In this document: one piece after another, positions 3,479 through 40,767 of the stretch
Numbering within the stretch: position 1 is the first letter of the stretch
Layout: every line of letters starts with the position of its first letter
Source of the DNA: an uncultured Verrucomicrobiales bacterium
GTDB taxonomy: Bacteria > Verrucomicrobiota > Verrucomicrobiia > JADLBR01 > JAIBCM01
Reading direction: 5' to 3'
Length of the DNA: 64,000 bases
Assembly: GCA_964435495.1 (NCBI GenBank)
Contig: CAYSZK010000003.1
Coordinates: forward strand, 2,870-66,869
Notes under the pieces: model-generated
What the model saw: only the letters and a program-made list of their open reading frames with translations
What the model was told of the DNA's origin: nothing
The model's database searches: none
Program-made: the position numbers and the translations under genes

Positions 3479-5526
3479 GGCAGTTCGTCCTTGATCTCAA
3501 TCCGTACCGTGTCATCGGGGTCTTTGCGGATGTCGTAAACGAGGACCCCCGGATAATTGGGCCACGGTCCCGTGGATTCGTTGCCGAACAGGAGCCCGAA
3601 CCACCGTCCGTCCGGCCCTTGCAACGGCGGGCAGGAATGCCCCGCGTGCGGCATGGCGTAGGCCCGGCGCGGCATTTCATACGGCCCTTCAAGTTTGTCC
3701 GACTGCCAATAGACCCAGTCGTACGTGCCATCGACCCTGTAGTTTTCGCCGTAGGTTCCGCCGCACCAACCGGTGGCGAACACCATGTACTTGCCGTGGA
3801 TTTTGAGGAGGTTCGTCGCGACGTCCCCTTTCGCAAAGGCCGTTCCCATCTCCGTCCGCAACGTGATACGCTTGCCGCCCTCCATCTTGGCGCCTTTCGG
3901 GTCCCACTCCTCCAGGGTGCCGTTGTAAAAGATGTAGGTCTTGCCGTCGTCGTCCACAAAGGCGGTGTTCTGGGCGCGCGAGCGGTCCACGTATTCATAC
4001 GGGCCCTCGGGTTTCCCGGTCTTCGACCGCAGCCACATCGTGCCGCCCCATGCCTGCGAACCGTCCGCCTTTTTTGGCCCGCCATACAACGAGGTGAAGA
4101 TGTGGAACGTCCCGCCCACGAAATAGATTTCGCTGTCCATGTATTTCGCACCGAGCGACGACTGCTGTTTGGGGTCGTCGAACCGCGCCTTACGGTCCTC
4201 CTCGGTGACGCCGGGGATGCTCATGAAATCAAACTGGATGTCCACCGGTTCCCACGCCCGCATATCCTTGGACCGGAACACCATGATCCGCCCGGCGTAG
4301 GCCTTGTCGGTGCCTGAGCCCGTGAGATAGGTGAACCCGTCGGGCGCCATGCTGCATTGCAGGTCCCGGATGTGATAGGGCGCCACCACCTTCAGCTTGT
4401 CCCAGGGCCCGAACTCGGTGAACGCGCCGGGCTTGATGTAGGGCAAGGGCGCCGGTGGCCGTTTGCCGTACGTGTTTTCCAAACCGAACTCCAGCGGCAC
4501 AATCGCTGGTTTGTCCCGAATCGCCGCCCGGCTGTCCCTGCCCGAGAACGTGGCGAACCACGCGTCGCCGGGTCCTTGGAAAACGGTGGTCTGGCCGCCG
4601 TGCGGCACCGCCACCAGCGGCTCGGTGTAGGGTCCCTCCAGCTTGTCCGAGCCCGCCACAAATGTGTCGTAGCAGCCCACCCCAATCCGGTCCCGGACCG
4701 CCGCCGCCATCAGCCAGTAGCGGTTGTTCGCCTTGAACAGGAACGCCCCCGCGGTTCCCGCGTACCGCGGCGCGTGGGTTGAGTCCATCGGTTCGTGCCC
4801 GCCGTGGGGGATCGACGGAAACGGCGCGCACCGCAGCAGCCGCGGCGCCTCGGCCAGCCCGGAAAGATCGTCCTTAAGCCGCGCCATCCAGCCCTGCCCC
4901 ATCACCCAATACGCCGCGCCGCCATTCGCGTCGTCCACAAAAATCGACGCGTCCGTCCCCTCCGCCGTGAACTGGCCCAAATCCTCGTAAGGCCCTTCCG
5001 GCTTGCCGGTCGTGCTCCGCAGCAGGCCAGTGCCCTGGCCGTTCATGCTGTAGGTGATCCAGTAGGTATCCTTGCGGTAATGCGCCTCGGGCGAAACCAT
5101 CCCGCGCACCAGCGGCCCCGCCGGATCGTCCGGGTTCACCCGCATTTCCTTCTGCCACGCGCTCTTTGGGCCGGTGGCCTGTTTTGCAATGCTCCACACC
5201 TGCCCCATCTCCTTCCATTCCTTCAAATCCGTCGAGCGCCACAACCAGACTCCGTCGTTATTCTGGAAGTCGGACGGGCCTTTCCGATCGGATGAATCAG
5301 ACCGATCCCCCGCTGAAGCGACCGTGCCGGTTAGGTACCATGCCCCGTCGCCGCCCTTGCAGATGCTCGTGTCCCGGACCGGCGCGTCAAACAACGGCGC
5401 GACCTTGGACCGCGGCGCGTCAAGCTCGGGCGGCGCCATCGCGCCAGCGTCCGCCGCCGACAAGGCAGCCAAGCCCAAAACCAGCGCCCCTTGCCTCAAC
5501 CGTCCGAATCCCGCCTTGTCCGCCAT
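3475..5526 (-). CDS. Glycoside hydrolase family 43-like protein (multi-domain, secreted)
   Basis: Repeated GH43-type five-bladed propeller motifs (DGxWYL, WLWRSxDLKxW). I checked that the ATG at 5526 gives a signal peptide (MADKAGFGRLRQGALVLGLAALSAADAGA). The longer 5598 start has no signal peptide. Confidence 0.75.
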   Translation of the reverse strand: MADKAGFGRLRQGALVLGLAALSAADAGAMAPPELDAPRSKVAPLFDAPVRDTSICKGGDGAWYLTGTVASAGDRSDSSDRKGPSDFQNNDGVWLWRSTDLKEWKEMGQVWSIAKQATGPKSAWQKEMRVNPDDPAGPLVRGMVSPEAHYRKDTYWITYSMNGQGTGLLRSTTGKPEGPYEDLGQFTAEGTDASIFVDDANGGAAYWVMGQGWMARLKDDLSGLAEAPRLLRCAPFPSIPHGGHEPMDSTHAPRYAGTAGAFLFKANNRYWLMAAAVRDRIGVGCYDTFVAGSDKLEGPYTEPLVAVPHGGQTTVFQGPGDAWFATFSGRDSRAAIRDKPAIVPLEFGLENTYGKRPPAPLPYIKPGAFTEFGPWDKLKVVAPYHIRDLQCSMAPDGFTYLTGSGTDKAYAGRIMVFRSKDMRAWEPVDIQFDFMSIPGVTEEDRKARFDDPKQQSSLGAKYMDSEIYFVGGTFHIFTSLYGGPKKADGSQAWGGTMWLRSKTGKPEGPYEYVDRSRAQNTAFVDDDGKTYIFYNGTLEEWDPKGAKMEGGKRITLRTEMGTAFAKGDVATNLLKIHGKYMVFATGWCGGTYGENYRVDGTYDWVYWQSDKLEGPYEMPRRAYAMPHAGHSCPPLQGPDGRWFGLLFGNESTGPWPNYPGVLVYDIRKDPDDTVRIEIKDELP

Positions 5527-5537: not shown

Positions 5538-6485
5538 TCATGGAACCGCCAGAAGTTGTGGTTGCCCGCCGCAGGGCAGCCCCGACACCGCCCGCCACGC
5601 GCTGTCTTTGTCCTGGAACACCGTCACCGGCCCGCTGCCCCGCAACACGGTGGAGGTCTCGCGATACGGACCCTCCAGTTTATCCGAGGTCCACAAGACC
5701 GCGTCGTGGGACGGTTTGCCGTCATGCGCCTGCCAACGCGGGGCGAGGGCGCAATACTTTCCCTCCCGTTTGAACAACGCCACGCCCTTGCCGCCCAGCG
5801 TCAGCCTGTCCTTTGCCGGATCGCCGGTTTGAGCCGGGGCCAGGAGTCTGGGCGCTTCGGCGAGTTTCTCAAGGTCCGGCGCCACCCTCGCGATCCATCC
5901 GTCCGCGAACACCAGATAGACGGCGCTGTCCTCGAGGAAAAAGGAGGGCGTCCCGCCGCGCGTGGCGAGGTAGCCGTGATCGTCATAAGGCCCCTCGGGC
6001 TTGCCGCTGGCGCTCTTCTGCACGATGATGTTCTGGCCGTTCATCGCGCAGAGCAGATACCAGGCGCCCTGGATCGAATAGAACTTCGGCGCGGTTGTCG
6101 CCTGGGCAAGCAACCCGTCGATCCGGTCCGCCGGCGCGCTCCAGTCCAGCCAGATGCCGCGCTTGGGCTTTCCGCCGCGGGCGAAATGCTCCGCCCGGTC
6201 CCAAGCGTACACGGGGTTCTCCCACGTTTTCAAATCCCTGGAGCGCCACAGAGGCGCGCCGCGGTTGTAATCGAAGTCGGTCTTGCCTGATTTGTCGAAG
6301 GTGCCCGCGGTGCCGGTGAGCAGGTACCCTCCTTCGCCGTCGGGGCAAACAAACGCGTCGCGAAGCATGTCGAGGCGCGGTGGCCCGGCAAGAGCGCCGG
6401 GTTCGGCGGCGCGGACGGGCGGGAGGAGAAGGATGGCCACGAGGATGGCCGCGAGGGCGGAGCGAGCGGGACGGGCAGAATTCAT
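5538..6485 (-). CDS. Glycoside hydrolase family 43-like protein
   Basis: Signal peptide (ALAAILVAILLLPPVRAAEP). Motifs are shared with the neighbouring GH43 paralog (DGEGGYLLTGT, PLWRSRDLKTWE). It lies 12 bp upstream of that paralog. Confidence 0.75.
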   Translation of the reverse strand: MNSARPARSALAAILVAILLLPPVRAAEPGALAGPPRLDMLRDAFVCPDGEGGYLLTGTAGTFDKSGKTDFDYNRGAPLWRSRDLKTWENPVYAWDRAEHFARGGKPKRGIWLDWSAPADRIDGLLAQATTAPKFYSIQGAWYLLCAMNGQNIIVQKSASGKPEGPYDDHGYLATRGGTPSFFLEDSAVYLVFADGWIARVAPDLEKLAEAPRLLAPAQTGDPAKDRLTLGGKGVALFKREGKYCALAPRWQAHDGKPSHDAVLWTSDKLEGPYRETSTVLRGSGPVTVFQDKDSAWRAVSGLPCGGQPQLLAVP

Positions 6486-6590
6486 GGGTTGTCGGATTTA
6501 GCGCGTAAACCATTACGTTGAATCAGTGCCCCCGCCTGTCAACCCTTTGGGGCGCGCTGGTCCCCACCGCTTTCGTATGGGGTTCTGGCA

Positions 6591-6710
6591 GGAAAGTGGA
6601 AGCAGCCCCCGCCACTTCAGGTTGTGCCGTCGATAAATGGGGTCTCCGTAAGGAAGTGGCGGGGCCGCCGCTTAACGCGTGGGATGGACCAAGCGGAGCG
6701 GCAAGGGCGG
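6591..6710. repeat. Copy A of a conserved roughly 120-bp GC-rich stem-loop repeat
   Basis: It is near-identical to 8321..8440 (3 mismatches or indels). A perfect 14-15-bp stem (GCCCCCGCCACTTC / GAAGTGGCGGGGC) encloses a roughly 33-nt loop (AGGTTGTGCCGTCGATAAATGGGGTCTCCGTAAG). Confidence 0.85.
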
Positions 6711-6798
6711 AAGATGTTCCCAAAACGGCCCACCGCTCCCTGCAACGGATCAATCCAGGGAAAACCGCACGGGGCCGAGGACCGGCGCAGGAAAAAAA

Positions 6799-8271
6799 TC
6801 AGCGGCCACGGCGCGCGAAGGGAACCAGAACCGCAATGCCGGCCAGCGCCGGCATCACCGTGCCCGGTTCGGGGATCGCGGTCACGACCAGTTCGATGTT
6901 GTTGCCGTTGAGCTGCAACAGGCCGTTCCATGAGAAGCCAATCGTGCCCGCGGTGACCCCGCCCAGCCCCCCCGCGAGGTTGGTGCTGGTGAAGAGCGTG
7001 TAGGTGGTGGCGAACAGGCCCGCCTGCTCGGTGAAGGTGAAGTCGGTGAACTCCAGGGTGTTGATGGAAAGGATGCCCGTGAGCACATTGATCCGGTCGC
7101 CGGTCAAGCCAATGTCGAACAGCAGGTCCCCCGGCTCAATGGCCGTGAGGTCCAGAACGCCGGTCAGGAGCGAGAGATCGAGGTCCTCGATTGTGCCGTC
7201 CCCGCCGGGGGCCAGGCGTCCGCCGGCCTGGACAGTGATTCCGACCTCATTGGTTTCGAGGTTGATGGCGCCGGTGCCGCCGAGGGTGGAGTTTGTCGCC
7301 ACGGTGTAGGCGCCCGCGCTGTTGTGCCTGCCGTTGATCAGGAGCGTGCCGCCGCCCTGGACTGTTGTCGTGCCTTCCAGCGTGTTGGTGCCGGTGAATG
7401 TCAACGTCCCGGTCCCATCCTTGATGAAGGAGCGTTCGCCGGCGGCGTTCGGGTGGTCGGGCATGGCGCCGCTGAAGGTGGTGTTGTTGGTTTGGTTGAT
7501 TCGGAACGTGCCGCCACCGTTGCCGCCACTAAAGGTAAGATCCCCGCTGCCGGAAAGGGCGCCGAGGGTGGTGGTGACGTTCGTGGCGGTGGAAACATTC
7601 ATCGTGGTGCCGAGCGCCAGGACAACATTCAGATTGGGCTGATTGAAGGTTCCGGTGAGGTTGTCGATGTTCAAAGTGCCGTTTGAGACTGTCACCGTGG
7701 TGGGCGCCGAGAACGTCACGGTGGATCGGATGCCCAAGTTTCCGATGCCCGTTTTCACGAAGTCGCCGGAAACCGCCATGTTGTTCAGTCCCAGGTCCAC
7801 GGCCGCGGTGGTAACGTTTTCCACTTCCACAACAGCGCCCGCCGTGAAGGCCAGGGTGGAACCGCTCAAGCCAATGGTGCCATTGGTGCTCTGGCTGGTT
7901 CCCAGGCGCCATCGGATTCCGCCGATGGAAAGGGGGGCGGAGATCGAGATATTCTGGTTGTTTGCCGTGAATGAATTGGTGGCGACGGTGAAGACCATGG
8001 TCGAGTTGCTGGTCCCCCCGGCTGTCGCAAAGTCCGTTGTGGCGCTCACGCCCCCGTCGGTCGCCGTCCAGTTGGAGCCCTGAATCGAACTGCCGTTGTA
8101 AAGGCCGTACTGTGGCGTCACGCCATCGGTGTCGAAATAGAGGAGCTGGCCCTGCGCCTGGGCGGTTCCGAAGACAGGTGCCGCCAACGCGGCGGCCCTG
8201 TGGATAAACTTTGCCCCTTGGTTTTTCACGGACGTCAATCTGAGGCCGGGCCCGCCGGGAGTCAAGGGCAT
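6799..8271 (-). CDS. PEP-CTERM sorting-domain protein (secreted, Ser/Thr/Gly/Asn-rich beta-repeat)
   Basis: C-terminus PEPGTVMPALAGIAVLVPFARRGR shows a PEP motif, a TM helix and an Arg cluster. The body has low-complexity T/G/N/S-rich repeats. Confidence 0.75.
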   Translation of the reverse strand: MPLTPGGPGLRLTSVKNQGAKFIHRAAALAAPVFGTAQAQGQLLYFDTDGVTPQYGLYNGSSIQGSNWTATDGGVSATTDFATAGGTSNSTMVFTVATNSFTANNQNISISAPLSIGGIRWRLGTSQSTNGTIGLSGSTLAFTAGAVVEVENVTTAAVDLGLNNMAVSGDFVKTGIGNLGIRSTVTFSAPTTVTVSNGTLNIDNLTGTFNQPNLNVVLALGTTMNVSTATNVTTTLGALSGSGDLTFSGGNGGGTFRINQTNNTTFSGAMPDHPNAAGERSFIKDGTGTLTFTGTNTLEGTTTVQGGGTLLINGRHNSAGAYTVATNSTLGGTGAINLETNEVGITVQAGGRLAPGGDGTIEDLDLSLLTGVLDLTAIEPGDLLFDIGLTGDRINVLTGILSINTLEFTDFTFTEQAGLFATTYTLFTSTNLAGGLGGVTAGTIGFSWNGLLQLNGNNIELVVTAIPEPGTVMPALAGIAVLVPFARRGR

Positions 8272-8320
8272 TTGCTATCAAATGTCTCAATAGATACCAT
8301 TGCCCCCGGGGCCCTTCGGC

Positions 8321-8440
8321 GGAAAAGTGGAAGCGGCCCCCGCCACTTCAGGTTGTGCCGTCGATAAATGGGGTCTCCGTAAGGAAGTGGCGGGGCCGCC
8401 GCTTAACGCGTGGGATGGGCCAAGCGGAGCGGCAAGGGCG
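8321..8440. repeat. Copy B of the roughly 120-bp stem-loop repeat
   Basis: Direct-orientation near-identical copy of 6591..6710. It sits immediately upstream of the PEP-CTERM gene start. Confidence 0.85.
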
Positions 8441-8687
8441 GTGTCTGGGTAAGGAATTGCGGTGTGCCGGAGATAATCGGCGGGCGTGAGAAGGCGCAGG
8501 CCCGAGGCGGGCCGGGGCGCGGAAGCGGTGGGCCGGGGCTCTGGGGCGTCGGAAAGGAGCGCGCTGGGGGTTGGGGGTTGGGGCTGGGAGGCGCAACGGG
8601 AGTGCTCTTTTGTTTGCGGGTTTTGAGGGCGGGCGGGGGGCCGGGGTCAGAACAGGAGGGCGTTTCCAGTATTCCAATTGCGTCCGA

Positions 8688-9134
8688 CTACGGGGCGCGA
8701 TACGGGTCCGGTCCGGGATGGGTGGAGATCGGGGATGCGCGGAGATTTCCCGAGTAGAGAGGCGCGCAGCCGCAGACGCGCTGGAAGCGGTCGGGGTTGT
8801 CGAGGAAGGCGCGGAGTTTCTGGTAGGGCGTGGGGTTGTGGGCGGCGGGCGTGCCGTGGGGGCAGACGACCACTTCCCGAAGCGGGGCGGTCTCGCGCCA
8901 ATAGAGGAAAGCGGTCAGGCCGATGACGGCCACCGCGGCGGCTTTCGCAAAAACGACCAAACGCGTGCGCAGGGTGGTGCGGAGGTTTTCGCGGTTGCGC
9001 TCGGCGCGGAGGGCGGCGGTTACGCGGGCAAAGCCGTCGGCCGGGGCGGCGCGGCCGATGGCGAGGCGCAACGCGGCGACGGCCTGGCTGTCGGGGTCGT
9101 CGCCGGAGGAACGCGTTGGGGGGCCGGGGTTCAT
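8688..9134 (-). CDS. Hypothetical small membrane protein
   Basis: ORF with one predicted TM helix (VVFAKAAAVAVIGLTAFLYW). I recognised no family. It could be a GC artefact. Confidence 0.25.
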   Translation of the reverse strand: MNPGPPTRSSGDDPDSQAVAALRLAIGRAAPADGFARVTAALRAERNRENLRTTLRTRLVVFAKAAAVAVIGLTAFLYWRETAPLREVVVCPHGTPAAHNPTPYQKLRAFLDNPDRFQRVCGCAPLYSGNLRASPISTHPGPDPYRAP

Positions 9135-9272: not shown

Positions 9273-9662
9273 TCAGGCCAGACGAGCACGGCCGAACTCA
9301 ACAATCTCACCGGCACAGGTGATCGCCTCCCTGCTTTGCAGTGCGCCGTAGTGCTCGAACGGGGGGCCTTCGGGATGCCCGTAGGCGTAGCGGGGCGCGA
9401 TGTAATAGGCGTCCAGGACCCGCGCCTTGTCCAGAAGCTCGCCACCCGCGGCGAGGGCGGCGGGCAGGTCCGCGAGCAGGCGCGCGACGACGTGTCCCCA
9501 AGCCTCCTGGCCGCGATTCAAGTGAAGGGCCTTCACCGCCTTTTCAGCGGCTTGCTGGGAGGCGAAGCAGGCCCATTCGTGGCGTCCGGAAGCCGCCGAA
9601 TCGCGGGCTTGCTCCAAATCGCGTTCCGCTTGGCGGAACCAGTCTGTGTCGCGATTGGCCAT
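9273..9662 (-). CDS. HEPN domain-containing protein
   Basis: MANRDTDWFRQAERDLEQA...AAEKAVKALHL...YIAPRYAY is a typical HEPN (COG2250-like) layout. The ATG at 9662 is supported by reverse-complement reading. Confidence 0.65.
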   Translation of the reverse strand: MANRDTDWFRQAERDLEQARDSAASGRHEWACFASQQAAEKAVKALHLNRGQEAWGHVVARLLADLPAALAAGGELLDKARVLDAYYIAPRYAYGHPEGPPFEHYGALQSREAITCAGEIVEFGRARLA

Positions 9663-9721
9663 GGGGGATGGTCGACAGTAAGCGGGCGGTTCCCCGCGGT
9701 CAAGATGAGCTGCCGGGGGCT

Positions 9722-10025
9722 CCAGTGTCCTGTTCATTAAATATGGGGGCAAAATCTGCGAGACAAAATGGCGCGAAACGAGGCGTGCCGAGGGGAGTGG
9801 ATCGGATGGATCCTCGACCTGAGGCACAACGAAGTGTCGCGTCATTTGGGCCGCAGCCCTCCGGCGGCAGCCTCCGGGCGACAGCCCTTCGGGTCGTGGT
9901 TCTTTTGGCCTGGGGCCGCGTTGCTCGTCGGTCACAGATCGCCACGGATAGGCTCCCTCCTCGCGCCTTGCCCCAGGCCAAAATCCCTCACGAATTTTGC
10001 CCCCATATTTAATGAGCAGGACACT
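9722..10025. mobile_element. MITE-like element with 32-bp terminal inverted repeats and no coding capacity
   Basis: Left TIR is AGTGTCCTGTTCATTAAATATGGGGGCAAAAT (9723-9754). Right TIR is ATTTTGCCCCCATATTTAATGAGCAGGACACT (9994-10025), with 1 mismatch. There is an inner inverted pair TTTTGGCCTGGGGC / GCCCCAGGCCAAAA. The TIRs are locally AT-richer than the flanks. Confidence 0.5.
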
Positions 10026-10256
10026 AGCAACTGGCATCTCGCTGCGCGGACCGGATTTCCCGGCGCGAGGCGGCAGGTGTCAAGGTCAAGGACTGATACC
10101 CCAGGGGTCCTGAATGGCGCTTAGCCTCACCGCGACGGTGGCGCACTGAACCCGACGAGGAACGCCGAACACCCGCGCGACACAAAGGCGCCAGGGCTCG
10201 ATTGGGGAATTCCCACAGTGCCGTTGCACCTGAATCGCGGGGGGCTTGGCAGTGCC

Positions 10257-13964: not shown

Positions 13965-14570
13965 CTACCCGGCGGCTTGTTTTTGCGGCGTGCCGGGGGC
14001 CAGGGTGGCGCGCACTTTTTTGAGGGCGCGTTGGGCGCGTTTTTTGGCGGCCTCCTCGGTGACGCCGGTGAGGGCGGCGACTTCCCGGAGCGGCAGGCCG
14101 TGGAGATAATGGAGGATCAAGACTTCCTGGTCGCCGGGTGGCAGGACGGCGAGGAGCGCCGCGGCATCGCGCCCGTCCGGCGTGGGAGCGGGCGCGGCAT
14201 CGGTGGTGGCGGCGGTGGCGGCGAAGAGATCGAGGCGCGCCCAATGGCGCAGGCGGCGGCGGGCGGCGTCGGTGATGGAGTTGCGAAGAATGGTGTAGAA
14301 CCACGCGGCGAACGGGCGCGCGGGGTCGTACCGCCGGCGCTCGCGAAAGACGCGGAGGAAGGTTTCCTGGACGACGTCCTGGGCGAGGGCGTCGTCGCGG
14401 AGCCGGGACCTGGCCAGGGCGAGGGCGGGCGGGTAATAGCGGCGGGCGAGGGCGTCGAAGGCGGCGTCATCGTCGTGGGATGCGATTCGGGCCATCAGCA
14501 GCGCGTCATTGGCGGCCGGGGCGCCATCCGGGGCGGGGAAGGCGATGATGTTTTGCTCCGGGGCGTGCAT
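13965..14570 (-). CDS. ECF-type RNA polymerase sigma-70 factor
   Basis: Sigma region 2 (VVQETFLRVFRERRRYDP...FAAWFYTILRN) and region 4 (LPPGDQEVLILHYLHGLPLREVAALTG). The start could be 14570 (MHAPEQ) or 14495 (MARIASH). Confidence 0.8.
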   Translation of the reverse strand: MHAPEQNIIAFPAPDGAPAANDALLMARIASHDDDAAFDALARRYYPPALALARSRLRDDALAQDVVQETFLRVFRERRRYDPARPFAAWFYTILRNSITDAARRRLRHWARLDLFAATAATTDAAPAPTPDGRDAAALLAVLPPGDQEVLILHYLHGLPLREVAALTGVTEEAAKKRAQRALKKVRATLAPGTPQKQAAG

Positions 14571-14647
14571 GGCGAGGACAGATTCGCAGAGAATGGCGGG
14601 GATTTCCAAGGGGAATATGTGGTTTGGTGGTCCGACTTTGGTGGGGG

Positions 14648-14725
14648 GCGTGGAAGCGGCCCCGCCACTTCCTTGCGGAGACCCCATTTATTGACGGAAC
14701 AACCTGAAGTGGCGGGGGCCGTGGC
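14648..14725. repeat. Copy C (inverted) of the stem-loop repeat
   Basis: Same stem arms as copies A and B, with the loop sequence reverse-complemented (TTGCGGAGACCCCATTTATTGACGGAACAACC). It sits between the LacI stop (14744) and the ECF sigma start. Confidence 0.8.
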
Positions 14726-14743: not shown

Positions 14744-15817
14744 TTACGCTGGCTTCGGGGGCGCGGTGGAATCACGGACGACGAGTTTGCCTTCGAACGT
14801 GCGGGAGGGGAGCGGGGTTTCGGGGTCCTGGATGCGCTGCATGAGCATGTCGGCGGCGACGCGGCCCATTTCGTAGAAGTCGATGGCCATGGTGGTGAGG
14901 GGCGGGCTCATGTGATCGGCGAGGACCATGTCGTCGAAGCTGACGATGGAGACATCCTCCGGGACGCGGATGCCGAAGCCTTTAAGGAAATGGAGGAGGC
15001 GGATGGCGACGGGGTCGGAGGATGCGACGATGGCGGTGGGTTTGAGGTCGGCGATGAGGGCGGTGCGGAGGTACTCGGCGACTTCCTGGGTGCGCTCGGG
15101 CGGTTCGTTCTTGAAGGGGACGAGCAGGTGGCGGGACATGAGAAAGAGGACGGGGAGCCCGGCCTCCTCCATGGCGGCGCGGAAGCCGCGGACGCGGTGG
15201 AAGAGCGACTGGTGCTCGACGTAGTTGCCGACGAAGACGATCTGTTTATGGCCGAGATCGAGGAGATGGCGGGCCGCGGCCTTGCCGGTGTTAAAGTCCT
15301 CGACATAGACGGCGTTTTGTTTGGCGGAGGCGTTGAAGATGATATAGGGGATGCCGGCTTCGCCGATGCTTTTCACGACCTCGCGGTCGTCCACGTCGAT
15401 GACGACGCCGTCCACGCCGTGTTCGCGGAGGTAGCGGGGGCGGGAGGCGACATCGCTCCAGCCGCCGGGGTCTTTGAGAAGGACGAGGTGCCACTCGCGT
15501 TCGGCGAGATATTCGTTGAGGCCGAGGAGGGCGGGGAACTGGGGGATGGGCAGGCGCGGGTTGGACGGATCGTAATTGAGGACGAAACCGACCTGTTTGA
15601 AGAGATGGTGGCGGAGCGCGCGGGCGCCGGAGTTGACGCGGTAATTGAGGCGCGCGGCGACTTCCAGGACGCGGCGGCGTGTGGCCTCGCTGACCTTGAT
15701 CGTGCTGGGGCGGGGGTTCAGGGCGAGGGAGACGGCGGCCGGGCTGAGCTTGAGCTCGTTGGCCAGATCAATAATGGTGACCCGGCCGGAGCGCGGTTTG
15801 GAACGCGGTTTAGGCAT
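14744..15817 (-). CDS. LacI-family transcriptional regulator
   Basis: N-terminal HTH (TIIDLANELKLSPAAVSLALN) plus a periplasmic-binding-like sugar-binding domain, 357 aa in all. I confirmed the ATG at 15817. The 1476-aa ORF in the track is an artefactual extension. Confidence 0.85.
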   Translation of the reverse strand: MPKPRSKPRSGRVTIIDLANELKLSPAAVSLALNPRPSTIKVSEATRRRVLEVAARLNYRVNSGARALRHHLFKQVGFVLNYDPSNPRLPIPQFPALLGLNEYLAEREWHLVLLKDPGGWSDVASRPRYLREHGVDGVVIDVDDREVVKSIGEAGIPYIIFNASAKQNAVYVEDFNTGKAAARHLLDLGHKQIVFVGNYVEHQSLFHRVRGFRAAMEEAGLPVLFLMSRHLLVPFKNEPPERTQEVAEYLRTALIADLKPTAIVASSDPVAIRLLHFLKGFGIRVPEDVSIVSFDDMVLADHMSPPLTTMAIDFYEMGRVAADMLMQRIQDPETPLPSRTFEGKLVVRDSTAPPKPA

Positions 15818-15974: not shown

Positions 15975-16328
15975 CTATTTGCGGGCTTCGTCGAGAAGCT
16001 TCCAAAAGCCGGGCTCATTTTCGAGGGCCTCGTCCTCGCCGACGGGGAGGCTGGTGCGGAAGAGGAAGTCCTTGAGGGTGTTTTTGTGGAGGACGCGGTC
16101 AATGACGAGGCCCTGGCCGGTTTTGCGGAAATAGAGGCGGTAGTCGCGGGCGCGGAAGCGGTAATAGACGCGGTTGTCGCGTTCGAGGCGTCCGAAGCGG
16201 TCGGAGTCGTGTTTGGGATCGAAATCCTCGGGGAGGAGATGGAACTCGCTGAGAATCTCGAGCTGGAGTTCCTTGGGCATGCGGGCCATTTCGGCGGCGC
16301 TGAGGTCATTGAAGATGATCTGGAACAC
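15975..16328 (-). CDS. ParE/RelE-family type II toxin-like protein
   Basis: VFQIIFNDLSAAEMARMPKELQLEILSEF...YYRFRARDYRLYFRKTGQGLVIDRVLHKN matches the ParE/RelE fold signature (F-x-x-x-A-x-x-D...DYRIIY...HRK). The start is GTG at 16328. Confidence 0.55.
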   Translation of the reverse strand: MFQIIFNDLSAAEMARMPKELQLEILSEFHLLPEDFDPKHDSDRFGRLERDNRVYYRFRARDYRLYFRKTGQGLVIDRVLHKNTLKDFLFRTSLPVGEDEALENEPGFWKLLDEARK

Positions 16329-16429
16329 GGGGCGGAGTGTAGCGCGAAAGGGGCGCGCGGGCGAGGAAAAGCTTGGCGGCCTGGATTTCGGGCTCGTCGG
16401 ATGGGCGGCGGGGCGGGTAGTGTGCGGGG

Positions 16430-17722
16430 ATGAGCGCGACGGCACGATTGGAGATTGGCGGCAAGGGCCTGGACTTGCCGGTGGTGGCGGGGAGCGAAGG
16501 GGAGCGGGCGCTGGACATCGCGAAGCTTCGGGACGCGACCGGCTGCATCACGCTGGACGAGGGGTACGGGAACACGGGATCGTGCGAGAGCGCGATCACG
16601 TTCATTGACGGGGAGAAGGGGATTCTGCGGTACCGCGGGATACCGATAGAGGAGCTTGCGGAGCAATCGACGTTCATCGAGACGGCCTACCTGATCATCC
16701 ATGGGCGCCTTCCGACGAGCGCGGAGCTGCGCGGGTTCTCGGATTTGCTGACGGACAACGAGCTGCTGCACGAGGACATGAAGTTCCATTTCGAGGGGTT
16801 CCCGCCCAACGCGCATCCGATGGCGATCCTGTCGTCGATGATCAACGCGGCGGCCTGTTTTCATCCGGGCCTGCTGGAGGGGTACAACCCGGCCCGGTTC
16901 AACCTGCAGGCGGCGCGGCTGCTGTCGAAAGTGCGGACCATCGCGGCGTTCGCCTACCGGAAGTCGCGCGGGCTTCCGATCATCTACCCGCATCCGACCT
17001 ACAAGTACACGGCGAACTTCCTGCACATGATGTTTTCGCTGCCGTACGCGGACTACGAATTGAAGCCGGAGGTGGTGAAGGCGCTGGACCTGATCTTTCT
17101 CCTGCACGCCGACCACGAGCAGAACTGTTCGACGGCGACGGTGCGGATGGTGGCGTCGAGCCGGGCGAACCTGTTCGCGTCGGCGGCGGCGGGGGTGTGC
17201 GCGTTGTGGGGGCCGCTGCACGGCGGGGCGAACCAGGCGGTGCTGGAGATGCTCGAACAGATCGCGCAGGACCGCGACGACGGCTCGCGGTTTTTGGCGC
17301 AGGTGAAGGACAAGGCGGGCGGCAAGCGGCTGATGGGCTTCGGGCACCGGGTGTACAAGCATTACGATCCGCGGGCGGCGATCATCAAGAAGCGGTGCGA
17401 CGCCCTGCTGGCGGTGTTGAACCGGACGGACCCGCTGCTGGACATTGCGCGCAAGCTGGAGGAGGTGGCGCTGCACGACTCCTATTTTGTGGAGCGGAAA
17501 CTGTATCCGAACGTGGACTTTTACAGCGGGATCATGATGCGCGCGATTGGGATTCCGGTCGAGATGTTCACGGTGATCTTCGCCATCGGGCGGATGCCGG
17601 GGTGGATCGCCAATTACCGGGAGGTCCTGGACAACCCGCACGGGCGTATCTACCGGCCGCGGCAGATTTATACCGGGCCCGCGTTGGGGCATTACGTGCC
17701 GATTGCCAAAAGGTCCGGGTAA
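16430..17722 (+). CDS. gltA: Citrate synthase
   Basis: Full-length match to type II citrate synthases, including GFGHRVYK and the active-site His/Asp context. Confidence 0.9.
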   Translation: MSATARLEIGGKGLDLPVVAGSEGERALDIAKLRDATGCITLDEGYGNTGSCESAITFIDGEKGILRYRGIPIEELAEQSTFIETAYLIIHGRLPTSAELRGFSDLLTDNELLHEDMKFHFEGFPPNAHPMAILSSMINAAACFHPGLLEGYNPARFNLQAARLLSKVRTIAAFAYRKSRGLPIIYPHPTYKYTANFLHMMFSLPYADYELKPEVVKALDLIFLLHADHEQNCSTATVRMVASSRANLFASAAAGVCALWGPLHGGANQAVLEMLEQIAQDRDDGSRFLAQVKDKAGGKRLMGFGHRVYKHYDPRAAIIKKRCDALLAVLNRTDPLLDIARKLEEVALHDSYFVERKLYPNVDFYSGIMMRAIGIPVEMFTVIFAIGRMPGWIANYREVLDNPHGRIYRPRQIYTGPALGHYVPIAKRSG

Positions 17723-25430: not shown

Positions 25431-25526
25431 TGGCGGAGGCGAATGGGAGTCGAACCCACCCGGGACCTTTCCAGGCCCCACACTGGTTTTGAAGACCAGG
25501 AGCGCCACCGGACGCCTGTCACCTCC
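25431..25526 (-). tRNA. selC: tRNA-Sec (selenocysteine tRNA, anticodon TCA)
   Basis: Reverse complement reads GGAGGTGACAGGCGTCCGGTGGCGCTCCTGGTCTTCAAAACCAGTGTGGGGCCTGGAAAGGTCCCGGGTGGGTTCGACTCCCATTCGCCTCCGCCA. It has an 8-bp acceptor stem, anticodon loop CTTCAAA (UCA), a long variable arm, a GGTTCGACTCC T-loop and an encoded CCA, and is 96 nt long. Confidence 0.8.
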
Positions 25527-25541
25527 AAAAATCGCATGCGG

Positions 25542-27158
25542 TCAATCTCCTGTTTGCCGTCCGTCCATTTGCGCCTGGACCGCTTTGTAAAACATCATGA
25601 CCGGCGATCCCCCAAAAGCAATCGCGCTCCACGCCGCGTCGTCGATTTCGTCCTGGCTGAATCCCATTGCGCGGGCCTTTTGGATGTGCTGGACGGCGCA
25701 GGGTTCGCACTTGGACAGAACCGACAAGGCCACGGCAATGGCCTGCTTGGCCGGTGCGTCAAGCCCCTTGGGCCTGCCCGCCGATTGCAGAAACGCCATG
25801 AACCGTTTCTCGGTGTCCTGGATGGCGCTCCCGGAAACGCCCGGCGCCCGCGCGGCGTCCGGCGGCGCGGCATCGGTTTCCGCGCAGCAGGCGGTTTCGG
25901 CGCCGGTGGCGCCGGTGGCGGGTGGGGCAGGCGGGGGGGCGGCGCGCGGCATGACACGTTCCTGGCGGGTTGTTAGAGTCACCATGCCCGTGCCCTTTCC
26001 GGTGGCACGTCCGATGACCGCGGCGGCGGGCACGCCGCGGGCGTGAAGGGCGGTGACGAGGGCGGGGGCGCGGTCGTGAGGGATGGCGATGAGGAGGCCG
26101 CCGGAGGTTTGGGGATCGAAGCAAACGTCGAGCGCGACGGGGTCAAGGCCTTCCGCGGAGCGGACCTGGCCGCCGGCGGCGGCGCGGTTGCGTTCGGTGG
26201 CGCCGGGGATGACGCCTTCGGCGGCGCGGGCCAGGGCGCCGGGGAGCAGGGGGATGTCGTCCCAGACCAACTCGGCATCGACGCCGCTGTCGCGGGCCAT
26301 TTCGGCAAGGTGCCCGAGGAGGCTGAAGCCGGTGACGTCGGTGCAACCGTTGGCGCCGTGGGCGAGCATGAGTTCGGCGGCGGTGTTGTTGAGGGCGGCC
26401 ATCGAGGCGGCGGCGGCCGCGATCTCGTCGGGACCGGCGCGGCCAATCTGTGCGGCAAAGGCGAGGATTCCCGTGCCGAGGGGTTTGGTGAGGACCAGCG
26501 CGTCGCCGGGCCGGGCGCCGGCGCGGGCGGTCACGCGGTCCGCGTCGATCTCCCCGGTGACGGCAAAGCCGGCTTTGATCTCGCTGTCCTGGATGCTGTG
26601 GCCGCCGATGACCGAGACGCCGGCCTCGGCCATCTTGTCGAGGCCGCCGCGGAGGATGTCGCGCATGACGCTGGTGGGGACGGCGCCGGCGGGGAAGCCG
26701 ATGATGGACAGGGCGGTCAAGGGGCGGCCACCCATGGCATAGACGTCGCTGACGGAGTTGGCGGCGGCGATCTGGCCGAAGGTGTAGGGATCATCGACCG
26801 AAGGACTGAAGACATCGACCGTCTGGACCAGGCACCGGGCGCCGTCGAACCGGTAAACCCCGGCGTCGTCCCCGGCGGCAACGCCGAGGAGCACGCGCGG
26901 GTCGTCGGGCGCGGGAAGGCCCTGGACGGCCTCTTTGAGGGTGGCCAGGTCGATCTTGGAGGCGCAGCCGGCCTTTTGGACAAGCCGCGTGAGGCAGACG
27001 GGACCAGGCGCGGGTTCGAGGTGTTCGCCGGCGCAATGGCAGACGTCCTTTTCCTTGAGAAGCTCGCACGGGCAGGCGAGGCGCGGGTCGCACACGCAAT
27101 GGCCCAGCGCGATGGAGCGGCGCATGACGCGCTGGCGTTTTTCGAGGTCCCTGGCCAT
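25542..27158 (-). CDS. selD: Selenide, water dikinase (selenophosphate synthetase), Cys form, with an N-terminal Cys-rich extension and a C-terminal AhpD/carboxymuconolactone-decarboxylase-like domain
   Basis: SelD core with LTRLVQKAGCASKI (E. coli: LTQYSHGAGCGCKI) and a PurM-like fold. The N-terminal roughly 50 aa carry three CxC pairs (CVC, CPC, CHC). The C-terminal roughly 110 aa carry an AhpD-like CxxC (SKCEPCAVQH). Confidence 0.8.
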   Translation of the reverse strand: MARDLEKRQRVMRRSIALGHCVCDPRLACPCELLKEKDVCHCAGEHLEPAPGPVCLTRLVQKAGCASKIDLATLKEAVQGLPAPDDPRVLLGVAAGDDAGVYRFDGARCLVQTVDVFSPSVDDPYTFGQIAAANSVSDVYAMGGRPLTALSIIGFPAGAVPTSVMRDILRGGLDKMAEAGVSVIGGHSIQDSEIKAGFAVTGEIDADRVTARAGARPGDALVLTKPLGTGILAFAAQIGRAGPDEIAAAAASMAALNNTAAELMLAHGANGCTDVTGFSLLGHLAEMARDSGVDAELVWDDIPLLPGALARAAEGVIPGATERNRAAAGGQVRSAEGLDPVALDVCFDPQTSGGLLIAIPHDRAPALVTALHARGVPAAAVIGRATGKGTGMVTLTTRQERVMPRAAPPPAPPATGATGAETACCAETDAAPPDAARAPGVSGSAIQDTEKRFMAFLQSAGRPKGLDAPAKQAIAVALSVLSKCEPCAVQHIQKARAMGFSQDEIDDAAWSAIAFGGSPVMMFYKAVQAQMDGRQTGD

Positions 27159-27164
27159 GGCGGG

Positions 27165-28337
27165 TCAGGCGGGGGCGCCGGCTTCCGTGCGGATGGTTTC
27201 AAAAAGGGCTTCGAGCCGGACGGCGATCCGCCCGGTGTCCGAGGGGGAGTAATCCGTTTCGATGCGGAGGTACGGCAGGGCCAGCCTGTCCCCGGCAAGC
27301 CGTTTGACGAGATCGGACTCGATATCGTAGGTGAGGCAGGCCTGCCAGACCAGGTCGATGACGCAGGCCGCGCGGTACTCGCGCGCCAGGCGGGCGATGG
27401 ATTCGAGCCGGGCGTTGTTGGGCGACATCACCGAGCACGGAATGGCCAGGTATTTGTCCGCCAGCGCCTCAATGGGATCGGGATTGGCCTCGTCCACGTC
27501 GTCGAGGATCGGTTTGAGGCCGGTGCAATTTTCCTGGCAGACGATGAGCCCGCCGCGGTCCTCGATGAGGTCCACCACGCGCTCCGCCCCGTGCACCACG
27601 GGCACGCCGGTAAGCAGCACGCGAACGCGTCCAGCCAGGTCCGGGCGCGATGGCGCGGCTTCCCGCTCCCGGAGGATGGCCTCGTAGCGGGCGAGGTCCT
27701 CGGGAATGCCGGAGATGATGGACTTGAGATCAAGCAATTCGCGCCCCGTGAGCGGGGGCGGATCGAGGCGCATGAGGCCGGCCAGGCGGCGGCGCAGGCG
27801 GCGCTCGCGGTTCATGAGCCGGATGGCGTCCCGGATGCGGGCGGTGGTGATTTTGACGCGGAACCGGTCCTCGAGCACCTGGATGAGGCGGTTCATTTCG
27901 GACGTCCACTGGGCGCGGGCGCCGGGATCGCCGGGACGGTGGGGGAGAGCGAGGATGTGCATGGGCCGGGACTCGGCCATGATCTCGAACATCTTTTTCT
28001 TGCCGTCGCAGGTTGTTTCGGCGACGACGAGCGCGGCTGACTCAAGGAATGGGTTGGATTTTCCGACGTGGTAGCCGAAGGTGGACTTGATCAGGGGGCA
28101 GAGATTGGAGGGCAACCGGGTTTCCGCGTCGGGGATGGTTTCCGGTTCGCCGCCGCAGAGGCAGACTGGAACGGCATTGGCGGCCATGATGATTTCGCGC
28201 GGGGTGAATTCGCACATGATGCCGACGATGGGGCGGCCTTGTTGGGCGGCCTGTCCGGCATGGGCGCGGCAATGGCCGAACATGCCGTCGAACCACGCCA
28301 GGGACGCGGGGCGTGGGGAAGCGGTCAGCGCGGGCAT
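27165..28337 (-). CDS. 2-hydroxyacyl-CoA dehydratase family protein, second HgdB-like paralog (390 aa)
   Basis: VGIMCEFTPREIIMAANAVPVCLCGGEP and ETTCDGKKKMFE match the HgdB/BcrB-type Fe-S subunit family. It sits 6 bp upstream of selD. Confidence 0.6.
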   Translation of the reverse strand: MPALTASPRPASLAWFDGMFGHCRAHAGQAAQQGRPIVGIMCEFTPREIIMAANAVPVCLCGGEPETIPDAETRLPSNLCPLIKSTFGYHVGKSNPFLESAALVVAETTCDGKKKMFEIMAESRPMHILALPHRPGDPGARAQWTSEMNRLIQVLEDRFRVKITTARIRDAIRLMNRERRLRRRLAGLMRLDPPPLTGRELLDLKSIISGIPEDLARYEAILREREAAPSRPDLAGRVRVLLTGVPVVHGAERVVDLIEDRGGLIVCQENCTGLKPILDDVDEANPDPIEALADKYLAIPCSVMSPNNARLESIARLAREYRAACVIDLVWQACLTYDIESDLVKRLAGDRLALPYLRIETDYSPSDTGRIAVRLEALFETIRTEAGAPA

Positions 28338-28385
28338 GGCAGGGCTCTCCGAAGCGTGCGGGCTTGGCGGCGCGCGGGGCTGCGT

Positions 28386-30260
28386 TCAGGGTTTCTTGAA
28401 CCAATCCTCGCTCTGCTTGTATTCAAACGCGCCGAGCTTGGCGTCCACTTCCACGCGGAATTCGCCGTCGAGACTGGAAGGCACACGCCACGTGTACCGG
28501 CAGGTGCCGCCTCATCCATACTCAAATTTGCCGGACTCGATCTTCTTGCCGTCCCGGTTGAGGATGGTGAAGATTGGGGCGGACTGGCGCTCGTTGTTGC
28601 GGCGGGCCCCGGCTTCGTAGGTCTGGCCTTCCTTGTCTTCGAGGGTGAATTCAATATAGGCCGTATTGTTGCCGCGCCAATCGACATCGACTTTCGCCCT
28701 GAGGCCAGATCCCACGCCTGTGGCCACGGCGGCGCCGGGGCGGATTTCGATTTTGCGGGAGTTGCCGGAGGACGCGCCGTTGAGGGTCCAGTCGGCGCCG
28801 CCTGCCTGGTGGCGCAGGCGGTAATACCCGATCTGGTAGGTGCCCGGCGCGAGGTCCCAGCCGTCTTTGGCGCCGGCGTCCAGGTAACCGCAGCAACCGC
28901 GGCTGAGGACGGCGAGTTCCAGGTGGGGGGACTCTGGTTTCAGTTTGCCGGCGTCCATGCGGACCTCCTGAAGGAGCAGCGTGGAAGCGTCCGGCTCGGA
29001 GTTGACCTGGAAAAATTTTCCGGCGAGGGCGAGCAATGGGGTTAGCGGCAAGATTTCGCCCCGGTAATCGAAGCGTTCGTTGCCGTCGAGGTCGAGGGCG
29101 AGGAGATCGTAGCCGGGACGCTCGTCTCCGTCGGACGATCGCTGGTTGTAGGGCAGCAGGTCGAGCGTGAACCCGGCCTCGATGCGCCCGTTGTTGCTGG
29201 CGTCAGTCACCGCGGCGAGCAGTTTGCGGGGGCCGGCGGCGGTTTTCCCTTCCCAGTGGCAGGCCGGCGCGACTTCGAGGTAACCGGGGGTGGAGGAGTT
29301 TTGCGTGTACACCCGGCCTTTGAACTCGATCTCCAGAGGGACTTTGCCTTCCGCCGCTGACGACTGGATTTCAGCGTCGCCGAATTTGTAGTAGCCGTAG
29401 CGCTCGGCCGATTCGCCGGTGTACTCATTGGAGGCGCTCAGGACCTTGGCCTTGGCCAGGTCGCCGCTGCCATCCACATCGACCAGCAACCGGGCCCTGC
29501 CCAAGTTGTCGGCGTCCATGAGCATGAACACGTCCCGCCCGCCGATCTTGGCCGAGAAGTAGAGCGGCTTTTTCACGTCCGGCGCGTTTTTGATGCCTTC
29601 GGGCGGGGCGTAAAGCAGGCGGGCGTTGCGTTCCGAGGCGTAGGCGAGATATTGCTGCAACTCGGCGGTTCCGCGCTTTTTCAAGGGCGTCTTCTCCCCA
29701 AAACCGACCTGATCCATGGACCGGGAGGCGGGGGCCGATGCCGCGGCGGGCGCGGGGGATTGGGATGTTTCGGGCTTGGCCGGGGACGGGGCGGCGGGCT
29801 GTTCGGTCGCGCGCTGGGCTTGGAGTTCCCTCTGCCACTCGTCGTACCGGCGCCAGAAATCGGTCCTGGCGGCGTCGATCTCGATGGCGGTGGACCCGGT
29901 GGCGGCGAGGATGAGCTTTCCTTTCTCGATGCCGACCAACTCGAACTCCTTGCCGGGGGCAAGCTTCATCGAGCCGACGGTCTTGCCGTTGATATGGAGC
30001 GGCACCTCCGAAGGCGCGAGGACGGAGACGGCCTTGGGCCATTGCTCCGGGTCTTTGGCGATCTCGGCGAGCTTGGCGGCGTCGGCGGCCGGACCGGATT
30101 GCGCGGGGGCGGCGGCGGCCCAGGCCCAGGCCAGCGCGGCGGCCAGGATAAGAAAGGGATCGAGCGCGCTGGCTGGATTCCGACCCGCAAACACCCGAGG
30201 CAATGGCCTGATCCCCTGCATAGCGGCGCCATGGTGGCGGATTCCTGGCGCGCTGGTCAA
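28386..30260 (-). CDS. Candidate selenoprotein: secreted protein of unknown function with an in-frame TGA (Sec?) 42 codons before the final TGA
   Basis: The annotated ORF ends ...KFEYG then TGA at 28512..28514. The same frame continues GGTCRYTWRVPSSLDGEFRVEVDAKLGAFEYKQSEDWFKKP to a stop at 28386..28388. The extension has GC3-rich codons and a protein-like composition. Its FEY motif echoes KFEYG just before the TGA. A signal peptide starts at the alternative start 30221 (MQGIRP...AAALAWAWAAAAPAQS). Confidence 0.5.
28470..28511 (-). promoter_or_regulatory. Candidate bacterial SECIS-like hairpin immediately 3' of the in-frame UGA
   Basis: The mRNA reads UGA GGC GGC ACC UGC CGG UAC ACG UGG CGU GUG CC. 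The outer stem is GGCAC/GUGCC and the inner is GCC/GGC, around a CACGUG palindrome. Only manual folding was done. Confidence 0.3.
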
Positions 30261-30399
30261 GGCAAATTATTTGTTTTCTCCAAAACGTACGGAGCGGGGC
30301 GCCCGCGCCGCCGGCACGCCTTTCGGAGAAGCCGGCCCCGGCCAACCGTCCCAAGCGCCGCCGCCCGCGTGAAATGGAAAATGGAATCTTGATTCGGGG

Positions 30400-31893: not shown

Positions 31894-31898
31894 CCCGG

Positions 31899-40628: not shown

Positions 40629-40767
40629 GCGCGGCTCCGGCAAGGAAATGGCTGCCTGGCTATGGTCCACGAACCGGCAATCAAAGCGTAAAACCGGGTC
40701 CTTGTCTAATAGCGGTTTTAAGCGGGAGAGGGGGAGTGGGGGGCGGCAAAACCCTTCCGGACAAACG

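Follow-up and report, generated by a model that had tools for sequence, protein, structure and literature searches.

The direct repeats that bracket a PEP-CTERM gene in this stretch of Verrucomicrobiota DNA raise the question of whether they are a sequence with a specific function or an ordinary kind of interspersed repeat. A repeat search of the whole stretch of DNA analysed (64 kb, referred to here as the window), together with base-by-base comparison, showed that copies A and B are direct repeats of 124 nt with 97% identity (Table 1), which differ at four positions (6590, 6592, 6604 and 6688), lose all similarity sharply at both borders and are spaced 1731 bp apart with exactly one gene between them. 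The original prediction of near-identical repeats at 6591–6710 and 8321–8440 with three differences was borne out, three of the four mismatches lying inside 6591–6710. The junctions of A, B and a third copy, C, were recovered in independent Logan assemblies of SRR10095373 and SRR10095374; the De Bruijn assemblies of these two sequencing runs break within the element, as repeats do, and one contig (L003) consists of the PEP-CTERM gene plus half a repeat at either end. The element exceeds chance expectation: a screen of the 64 kb for hairpins with perfect stems of 11 bp or more and loops no longer than 60 nt gave just six distinct ones, three of which are this element, and the 16-mer core of the loop was matched three times versus 0.3 expected.

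Table 1. Window positions of the repeat copies, their internal parts and the genes beside them
Feature	Position	Strand	Evidence
Copy A, full 124-nt mosaic repeat	6587..6710	+	Repeat search and base-by-base comparison; Logan contigs L085, L086, L003
Copy A, palindromic unit with GT tag, GTGGAAGCAGCCCCCGCCACTTC, whose inner half forms the long stem's 5' arm	6596..6618	+	
Copy A, 34-nt linker/loop AGGTTGTGCCGTCGATAAATGGGGTCTCCGTAAG	6619..6652	+	Hairpin search
Copy A, second, inverted palindromic unit; outer half altered (GAAGTGGCGGGGCCGCCGCTTAAC)	6653..6676	+	
Copy A, 3' module with second, weaker hairpin (GCCGCTT...AAGCGG...), in A and B only	6667..6710	+	
Copy B, full 124-nt mosaic repeat	8318..8441	+	Repeat search and base-by-base comparison; left junction in Logan contig L003
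Copy B, 34-nt linker/loop, same sequence as in A	8350..8383	+	Hairpin search
Copy C, 66-nt hairpin core only, inverted	14656..14721	-	Repeat search and window scans; Logan contig L088
Copy C, complete GT-tagged palindromic unit GTGGAAGCGGCCCCGCCACTTC (plus-strand reading), on the side nearest the downstream gene	14650..14671	+	23-nt plus/plus match to B
GH43 glycoside hydrolase, downstream of A by transcription	5538..6485	-	Pfam
PATR-repeat protein between A and B, with PEP-CTERM sorting signal	6799..8271	-	Pfam
148-aa membrane protein, weak anti-sigma-factor match, upstream of B by transcription	8688..9134	-	
ECF sigma factor, downstream of C	13965..14570	-	Pfam
LacI-family regulator, upstream of C	14744..15781	-	Pfam

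Copy C, which the original prediction had overlooked, lies approximately 6 kb from the A/B pair and matches it over 66 nt at 95% identity, with three substitutions, while its flanks are unrelated to those of A and B and the 3' module is absent from it. A simple segmental duplication, the outcome that the original prediction had raised against itself, is ruled out because C shares only this 66-nt core and its flanks are unrelated; a third, inverted copy in such a setting therefore indicates a discrete, dispersed element. The three copies all fall within 8 kb, and none was found in the remaining 50 kb or so of the window, where a covariance-model search with filters off also detected no degenerate copies.

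At the centre of the element is a perfect, GC-rich stem of 12 bp, CCCCGCCACTTC / GAAGTGGCGGGG (6607–6618 with 6653–6664 in A and 8338–8349 with 8384–8395 in B). A GC-rich stem had been correctly foreseen, but the perfect length of about 15 bp claimed for it did not hold, 15–16 bp being reached only with one bulged C, and the loop, given earlier as 33 nt, measures 34 nt. Each arm with its outer flank also folds on itself, as a hairpin of 7–9 bp with a 3–4-nt loop, to give a palindromic unit of about 21 nt (GGAAGYGGC-N3-4-GCCRCTTCC, with GT in front). The DNA folding energies are -5.7 to -8.1 kcal/mol for the left units of A and B, the right unit of B and the right unit of C, and -1.9 kcal/mol for the distal unit of C, which is degenerate. 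The GT-tagged outer half GTGGAAGCGG adjoins A, B and C, and GTGG, whose GG belongs to the stem, is kept in all three (plus-strand positions 6596, 8327 and 14650); the canonical REP tag GTAG is absent from A, B and C. In A, B and C two such units stand in inverse orientation around the 34-nt linker, one of those in C being partial, and the terminal inverted repeats amount to 12 bp perfect, 15–16 bp with the bulge and at most about 23 nt counting the outer halves.

Since the units are palindromic, their inner halves pair mutually to give the 12–16-bp stem and its 34-nt 'loop', and since every arm makes a REP-like palindrome with the flank outside it, the 'hairpin' is better read as two inverted units around a linker. 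The element is also mosaic, because A and B carry the additional 3' module, which reuses the GCCGCTT/AAGCGG half-sites and forms the second hairpin (about 6667–6702) within their common 3' flank. The contrast drawn in the original prediction with a generic REP thus pointed in the wrong direction: arms and outer flanks are REP-like palindromes and the overall layout is BIME-like. In C the loop appears flipped with respect to the conserved outer flank; DNA inversion was considered and rejected, a simpler account being available. The 'flip' is more simply understood as insertion of the whole element in the opposite orientation, with a different outer half-unit decaying in each lineage.

On this architecture we judge it somewhat more probable than an even chance that A, B and C are members of a lineage-specific family of short palindromic repeats interspersed between genes, either REP/BIME-like or very small MITE-like. 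Their identity of 95–97%, their presence in three different intergenic regions and in both orientations, their unrelated flanks and their sharp borders support this reading, and of the candidates named in the original prediction a mobilisable mini-element is the one that fits best. The borders of the 124-nt and 66-nt units showed no direct repeat, and this lack of a target-site duplication at any copy fits REP/IS200-type elements rather than DDE-type MITEs. Such a family would have multiplied by copying without target-site duplication; the candidates for this are a HUH/Y1 (RAYT-type) transposase that works on hairpins of single-stranded DNA, or else gene conversion or local recombination. Neither a RAYT, an IS200/IS605 nor any other transposase was found among the window ORFs scanned against Pfam, and the window holds no parent insertion sequence with matching terminal repeats. 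REP families usually comprise hundreds of copies, typically more than 100 per genome; with three copies only, all within 8 kb, local duplication or a locus-specific role is still conceivable. Further points at odds with a REP are that GTGG overlaps the foot of the palindrome rather than preceding it and that C has a degenerate distal unit.

Comparison with known systems bears on this assignment. E. coli BIME-1 (RIB/RIP) elements consist of a REP and an inverted REP with a well-conserved long 'L' linker between them (PMC3333891). The element resembles them in having two GC-rich imperfect palindromes in inverse orientation and a conserved linker of a few tens of bases, and also in that BIME-1 elements are extragenic, usually between co-directional or convergent genes, lack a target-site duplication and have mosaic variants with extra motifs (PMC3333891). 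There is, however, no sequence similarity between the two; the tag here is GTGG overlapping the stem foot whereas that of BIME-1 is GTAG 5' of the stem, the units are about 21 nt rather than 30–40 nt, and by eye the linker does not match the IHF consensus of enterobacteria well. Within the same phylum, Opitutus terrae (Verrucomicrobia; Di Nocera et al. 2013) has abundant GC-rich REPs, often as head-to-head or tail-to-tail dimers, the spacers of the head-to-head dimers tend to be conserved, and in one family the GTAG tag is mutated to GTGG (PMC3733652). The comparison with the O. terrae families covers architecture and published description, and translations of the element did not match the intragenic-REP peptides of the O. 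terrae supplement. Small MITEs (Correia/NEMIS, ERIC, RUP) offer a further parallel, with terminal inverted repeats of 12–26 bp around a short conserved core, intergenic placement in both orientations and co-transcription with neighbours. Those elements are 100–150 bp long and have target-site duplications (TA for Correia), unlike the present one, with its core of 66–80 nt and no duplication.

Searches for further copies and relatives extended well beyond the window. No copy was present in 2.8 kb added leftward via Logan contigs, the exact loop 22-mer had no match in 185,579 representative genomes, stem-only and unit-only patterns had none in viral contigs, and a blastn search of plasmids and phages with the 124-mer returned nothing relevant. 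In JGI metagenomes a loop 20-mer matched two contigs, L001 and L002, with similarity ending at the 20-mer in both, and both were judged chance matches: L001 carries a coding stretch (...YLVDKWGLRKE), which we take to be the end of a LamG-type domain, with no likeness beyond the 20-mer, and L002 is a MITE of 220 bp, unrelated to the element, whose terminal repeats measure 45 bp. The peptide VDKWGLRKE, which L001 shares with one reading frame of the element, was dismissed as coincidence: in that frame two of the three A/C substitutions change the amino acid, and there is no domain context. No element was seen at the citrate-synthase-anchored loci of the nearest genomes, which are uncultured Verrucomicrobiota MAGs with 75–78% protein identity and too distant for an empty-site comparison, and a homologue search with the PEP-CTERM protein for flanked paralogues gave only four distant matches. 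As no related sequence was found in the genome, JGI metagenome, plasmid, phage or viral collections searched, from which the species is missing, it is on architecture alone that membership of such a family is argued.

The original prediction had read the conservation of the loop as a sign of sequence-specific function. That argument is weak, given that A and B are 97% identical over all 124 nt, unstructured parts included, and that the three differences separating them from C fall only in the loop, none of them being compensatory; loop conservation probably just reflects the youth of the copies rather than demonstrated selection. A structured ncRNA (a small RNA gene or riboregulator) with the 34-nt loop as its functional part would draw on the predicted stability of the long hairpin and on the 91–100% identity of the loop among copies, but we consider it highly improbable, and the structured RNA proposed earlier did not find support. 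No Rfam family matched the element at gathering or E-value thresholds, with only chance-level matches around A (E-values of at least 3); the only Rfam match in the window was a tRNA-Sec at 25435–25526. An automated scan found neither a sigma-70 promoter nor a terminator at the element, the copies occur in both orientations relative to flanking genes, the 124-nt unit has folding z-scores of just -1.1 to -2.3, and no homologue was found in any collection searched. The stem shows no covariation, the check that the original prediction had proposed: 14 of its 15 pairs are invariant across copies. The element may form an RNA hairpin incidentally.

All three copies are intergenic, each between minus-strand genes, and the neighbours are supported by Pfam. 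Copy A lies between the stop of the PEP-CTERM gene (6799), which is 89 nt away, and the start of the GH43 gene (6485), in keeping with the earlier claim that A is upstream of a GH43 gene, which Pfam bears out. Copy B stands 47 nt ahead of the annotated PEP-CTERM start (8271) and 247 nt past the stop (8688) of the gene for the 148-aa anti-sigma-like protein, whose anti-sigma-factor match has an E-value of 2.9e-4, below the family cut-off. Copy C is situated between the stop of the LacI-family gene (14744), 23 nt away, and the start of the ECF sigma gene (about 14570). The product of the bracketed gene is a PATR-repeat protein whose end, IPEPGT-TM-RRGR, is a PEP-CTERM signal, which confirms the name given to the gene in the original prediction. 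A second, unrelated MITE-like palindrome was observed nearby (about 9725–10026), which shows that this genome does contain small non-autonomous elements.

Measured from the minus-strand starts of the downstream genes, the copies end 64–119 nt upstream (A of GH43, B of PEP-CTERM, where the full 124-nt B is at 47 nt, and C of the ECF sigma gene). They are clustered in 8 kb beside regulators and absent elsewhere in the window, the gene-proximal side is intact in all three (the ...GAAGTGGCGGGG(G)C-YGCTTCCAC unit), and an exosortase and an EPS gene cluster are situated 32 kb away. These observations are consistent with a shared cis-regulatory element, either a DNA site or a 5'-UTR RNA, that co-regulates the GH43, PEP-CTERM and ECF sigma genes, the putative regulator being the neighbouring ECF sigma/anti-sigma-like pair or the LacI-family repressor. 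We nevertheless regard such a local regulon as unlikely. The linker of C is inverted relative to its downstream gene, the distances to the start codons are unequal among copies, and the identity of A and B over 124 nt with sharp borders is what duplication would yield, but not selection for a binding site. The element also lacks a sigma-70-like promoter, and inspection of the loop and arms by eye gave no convincing sigma-70, ECF-type, sigma-54-type, LacI-operator or IHF motif. Position alone is weak evidence here, because a gap between co-directional genes counts as 'upstream' and 'downstream' alike.

The same gaps can be viewed from the other side, as every copy is downstream of a co-directional gene, at the distances from the stops given above, and a GC-rich stem works either way round. 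This would suit an orientation-independent intrinsic terminator or mRNA 3'-stabiliser that was selected and locally duplicated without a mobile-element origin; moreover, canonical hairpin and T-run terminators are no commoner than chance here, so that non-canonical hairpins may substitute for them. We consider this alternative distinctly unlikely, since a 34-nt loop and a missing T-run on both strands are unlike known intrinsic terminators, and the conserved linker, the GT-tagged sub-palindromes and the mosaic 3' module are left unexplained by it. Under the interspersed-repeat reading, copies between co-directional genes would be transcribed within the neighbouring mRNAs, where the GC-rich hairpin in either orientation could serve as a barrier to 3' exonucleases or as a weak terminator or insulator, although the lack of a T-run and the atypical loop length count against such an effect as well.

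The arrangement of 124-nt direct repeats around exactly one gene at 1731-bp spacing, and the shape of contig L003, with the gene between half-repeats, could also suggest that A and B are recombination sites, that is, attL/attR-like products of the integration of a circular 1731-bp molecule (repeat plus PEP-CTERM gene), or an on/off switch for a surface protein. A and B have a size and dyad symmetry reminiscent of chromosomal-integron attC sites (VCRs); like the 123–126-nt VCRs of Vibrio cholerae, they are highly similar imperfect palindromes of about 120 nt that flank a single gene as direct repeats. Unlike attC sites, they have no R''/R' core sites, integrase or array: neither strand has an R''(RYYYAAC) ... 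R'(GTTRRRY) pair arranged as in attC, A and B each having one GCTTAAC/GTTAAGC site without a partner in that arrangement and C none, and the window encodes neither an integrase nor a recombinase. Copy C stands alone, is inverted and shortened, and lacks the 3' module. The PEP-CTERM gene does not look foreign, as its GC3 (0.83) matches that of its neighbours, and the shape of L003 is what any repeat does to k-mer assembly. We therefore hold recombination sites of this kind to be very unlikely; deletion or duplication of the PEP-CTERM gene mediated by the repeats is possible in principle. Taken more broadly, a functional element, whether as a linker/unit site that joins the ECF sigma, PEP-CTERM/PATR exosortase substrate and GH43 genes in a regulon or as an A/B recombination switch, seems to us quite improbable.

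The interspersed repeat has consequences for annotation. The two small minus-strand ORFs pointed out earlier (6617–6931 and 8348–8677) are present and have a common C-terminus encoded by the repeat, and a search of 5.8 billion proteins with a six-frame translation of copy A, which includes this C-terminal peptide, gave no homologue. A 240-aa ORF opens at 14687, its ATG falling within the loop of C, and is probably artefactual; the element probably causes a wrong, over-long start of the ECF sigma gene.

The element is an ordinary kind of genomic feature, and no specific function is indicated for it. Its practical effects are modest: short-read assemblies break at the locus, spurious ORFs arise, and the element could favour loss or duplication of the PEP-CTERM gene. 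Greater importance would follow only if the whole genome showed it to mark a gene set, such as exosortase substrates or an ECF regulon. If the reading of A, B and C as interspersed repeats is true, they would represent one more REP/BIME/MITE-like sequence family, from a poorly sampled lineage of the Verrucomicrobiota.

A repeat search of the window and base-by-base comparison showed that copies A and B form a direct pair of 124 nt at 97% identity, spaced 1731 bp apart, with four mismatches (6590, 6592, 6604 and 6688) and similarity dropping abruptly at both borders, so the two near-identical repeats of the original prediction are real. The junctions recur in Logan's independent assemblies of runs SRR10095373 and SRR10095374, whose contigs end within the repeat. 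The predicted hairpin is present, but its perfect stem is 12 bp (CCCCGCCACTTC / GAAGTGGCGGGG) rather than about 15 bp, reaching 15–16 bp only if one C is bulged, and it encloses a loop of 34 rather than 33 nt; a second, smaller hairpin lies in the 3' flank common to A and B. The bracketed gene does encode a PEP-CTERM protein (a PATR-repeat protein with C-terminal IPEPGT-TM-RRGR), and the gene downstream of A is indeed GH43. The small minus-strand ORFs at 6617–6931 and 8348–8677, with a common C-terminus encoded by the repeat, were also found. The six-frame translation of copy A, including the shared C-terminal peptide, had no homologues among 5.8 billion proteins.

A covariance-model search of the whole window with filters off returned exactly three copies and no degenerate ones, adding to the two already predicted an inverted copy, C, which was also found in an independent assembly. 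Copy C has only the 66-nt hairpin core in common with A and B, from which it differs by three substitutions, every one in the loop. Simple segmental duplication fails as an account because this third copy has unrelated flanks; the element is discrete and dispersed.

Copies of the repeat and other features of the window
Feature	Position	Strand	Remarks
GH43 gene	5538–6485	minus	
Copy A	6587–6710		between PEP-CTERM stop and GH43 start
PEP-CTERM gene	6799–8271	minus	
Copy B	8318–8441		between 148-aa membrane protein and PEP-CTERM start
HEPN-domain protein	9273–9662		129 aa (Logan gene call)
MITE-like palindrome	9725–10026		about 300 bp; one copy in window
ECF sigma factor gene	13965–14570	minus	
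Copy C	14656–14721	minus	between LacI-family regulator and ECF sigma factor
ParE-like toxin	15975–16445		weak match; adjoins LacI gene
tRNA-Sec	25435–25526	minus	74 bits
SelD-like AIRS protein fused to CMD domain	25542–27164		
SelA	30373–31893		
SelB	31779–33842		
Exosortase EpsH	39645–40856		
EpsH with polysaccharide biosynthesis cluster	39645–53900		
Coding repeats	63301–63958		period 150 nt (50 aa), in large ORF
Large ORF	62155–63999	minus	runs past window end

All genes flanking the three copies lie on the minus strand, the loop being antisense to them in A and B and sense in C. The end of each copy lies 64–119 nt ahead of a start codon, and the three are grouped close to regulators, as would suit a regulatory site shared by the GH43, PEP-CTERM and ECF sigma genes; we consider such a site unlikely, however, with the linker inverted in C, no recognisable motif in the element, and a 124-nt identity with sharp edges. 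The 148-aa membrane protein has a weak anti-sigma match, below the family cut-off. The exosortase is encoded with an EPS gene cluster (WecG/TagA, GT1/GT4 and GT2 glycosyltransferases, a Wzx-like flippase, a Wzy_C ligase and methyltransferases), and is likely the sorting system for the PEP-CTERM protein.

Within the loop of copy C, one T is replaced by C, so that the TAA of a mini-ORF (ATG GGG TCT CCG TAA in A and B) reads CAA. The reading frame of the ECF sigma gene is thereby extended from 14570 to 14687, giving an ORF of 240 aa, and the Logan gene call adopts this longer start. The start at 14570 (MHAPEQ...) suits the position of sigma-70 region 2 better, and the extended version is therefore probably an artefact of annotation caused by the repeat. 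Toxin–antitoxin-like genes lie on either side of the region, the HEPN gene being without a recognisable MNT partner. The window also carries a complete selenocysteine toolkit (25435–33842), adjoined by 2-hydroxyglutaryl-CoA dehydratase-like genes and a BcrAD/BadFG-type activase.

Rfam had no matching family, whether gathering or relaxed thresholds were applied, the stem left no scope for covariation (14 of 15 pairs were invariant and the 15th is simply broken in A), and folding z-scores of the 124-nt unit were unremarkable (-1.1 to -2.3), those of the hairpin core alone as DNA being -2.1 to -4.0. With no support found for it, a structured RNA gene is scarcely credible. Neither a sigma-70-like promoter nor a hairpin-plus-T-run terminator was seen at the element; a hairpin selected as terminator or stabiliser would also leave the linker and sub-palindromes unexplained, and is quite unlikely. 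Sites for cassette recombination are very improbable, the element failing attC tests in that the R''/R' pair is absent.

Each stem arm with its outer flank forms a small palindrome by itself (GT-GGAAGYGGC-N3-4-GCCRCTTCC), which folds alone into 7–9 bp with a 3–4-nt loop (-6 to -8 kcal/mol as DNA). What was called a 34-nt loop is thus more aptly a conserved linker that joins two palindromic units of opposite orientation, whose facing positions give rise to the long stem as a secondary effect. The GT-tagged outer half GTGGAAGCGG adjoins all three copies; the right outer half has decayed in the A/B lineage (a CGC insertion; CC to AA) and the left in the C lineage. The 3' module of A and B re-employs GCCGCTT/AAGCGG half-sites, and the element is thus a mosaic. 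No target-site duplication surrounds the 124-nt or the 66-nt unit, and no transposase, integrase or Y1/RAYT protein is encoded in the window.

The loop 22-mer was absent from 185,579 representative genomes; the host is an uncultured member of the Verrucomicrobiota whose citrate synthase is only 75–78% identical to those of the nearest of them. Stem and unit patterns were absent from viral contigs, blastn against plasmids and phages found no related sequence, and 88 fetched loci yielded none to either blastn or the covariance model. Two JGI metagenome matches to a loop 20-mer, one in what we take to be a LamG-type coding motif and one in an unrelated MITE, were judged chance, the similarity ending at the 20-mer. 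The latter, at 3480–3710 of the unrelated metagenomic contig L002 (JAABUV010012986.1), is a 220-bp MITE with 45-bp terminal inverted repeats, which by chance contain the loop 20-mer, and an apparent 7–8-bp target-site duplication (GCCCTTA).

The MITE-like palindrome of the window, unrelated to the repeat, has near-perfect terminal inverted repeats of 29–32 bp (AGTGTCCTGYTCATTAAATATGGGGGCAAAAT) and, in its interior, a 14-bp stem without mismatches (9903–9916 with 9970–9983). Its place is upstream of the HEPN gene, within a spurious N-terminal extension of ORF 9273–10037. The Logan contig carrying the 148-aa gene (L087) breaks inside this palindrome. The contig also stops at about 8599, in G-rich low-complexity sequence (GGGGGTTGGGGGTTGGGGCTGGG) and not at B, which suggests another assembly-breaking sequence between that gene and B.

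Two inverted palindromic units around a conserved linker are also the build of E. coli BIME-1, in which a long, well-conserved linker sets a REP apart from an inverted one (PMC3333891). REPs abound in the verrucomicrobium Opitutus terrae, where they include dimers, among them head-to-head dimers with conserved spacers, and one of its families has GTGG in place of the GTAG tag (PMC3733652). Among the functions originally offered, a mobilisable mini-element fits best. The contrast drawn with a generic REP does not hold, as the element resembles REP/BIME more than not, and loop conservation fails as a sign of function, since all the copies are equally young and the substitutions that set C apart from A and B sit solely in the loop. 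On balance we favour a lineage-specific interspersed palindromic repeat of REP/BIME-like build, which, with a tag that is non-canonical relative to GTAG, is at most a candidate member of the REP family proper. Spread without target duplication could have involved a Y1/RAYT-type transposase acting on hairpin DNA, or local recombination, and between co-directional genes the element may incidentally serve as an RNA hairpin in either orientation.
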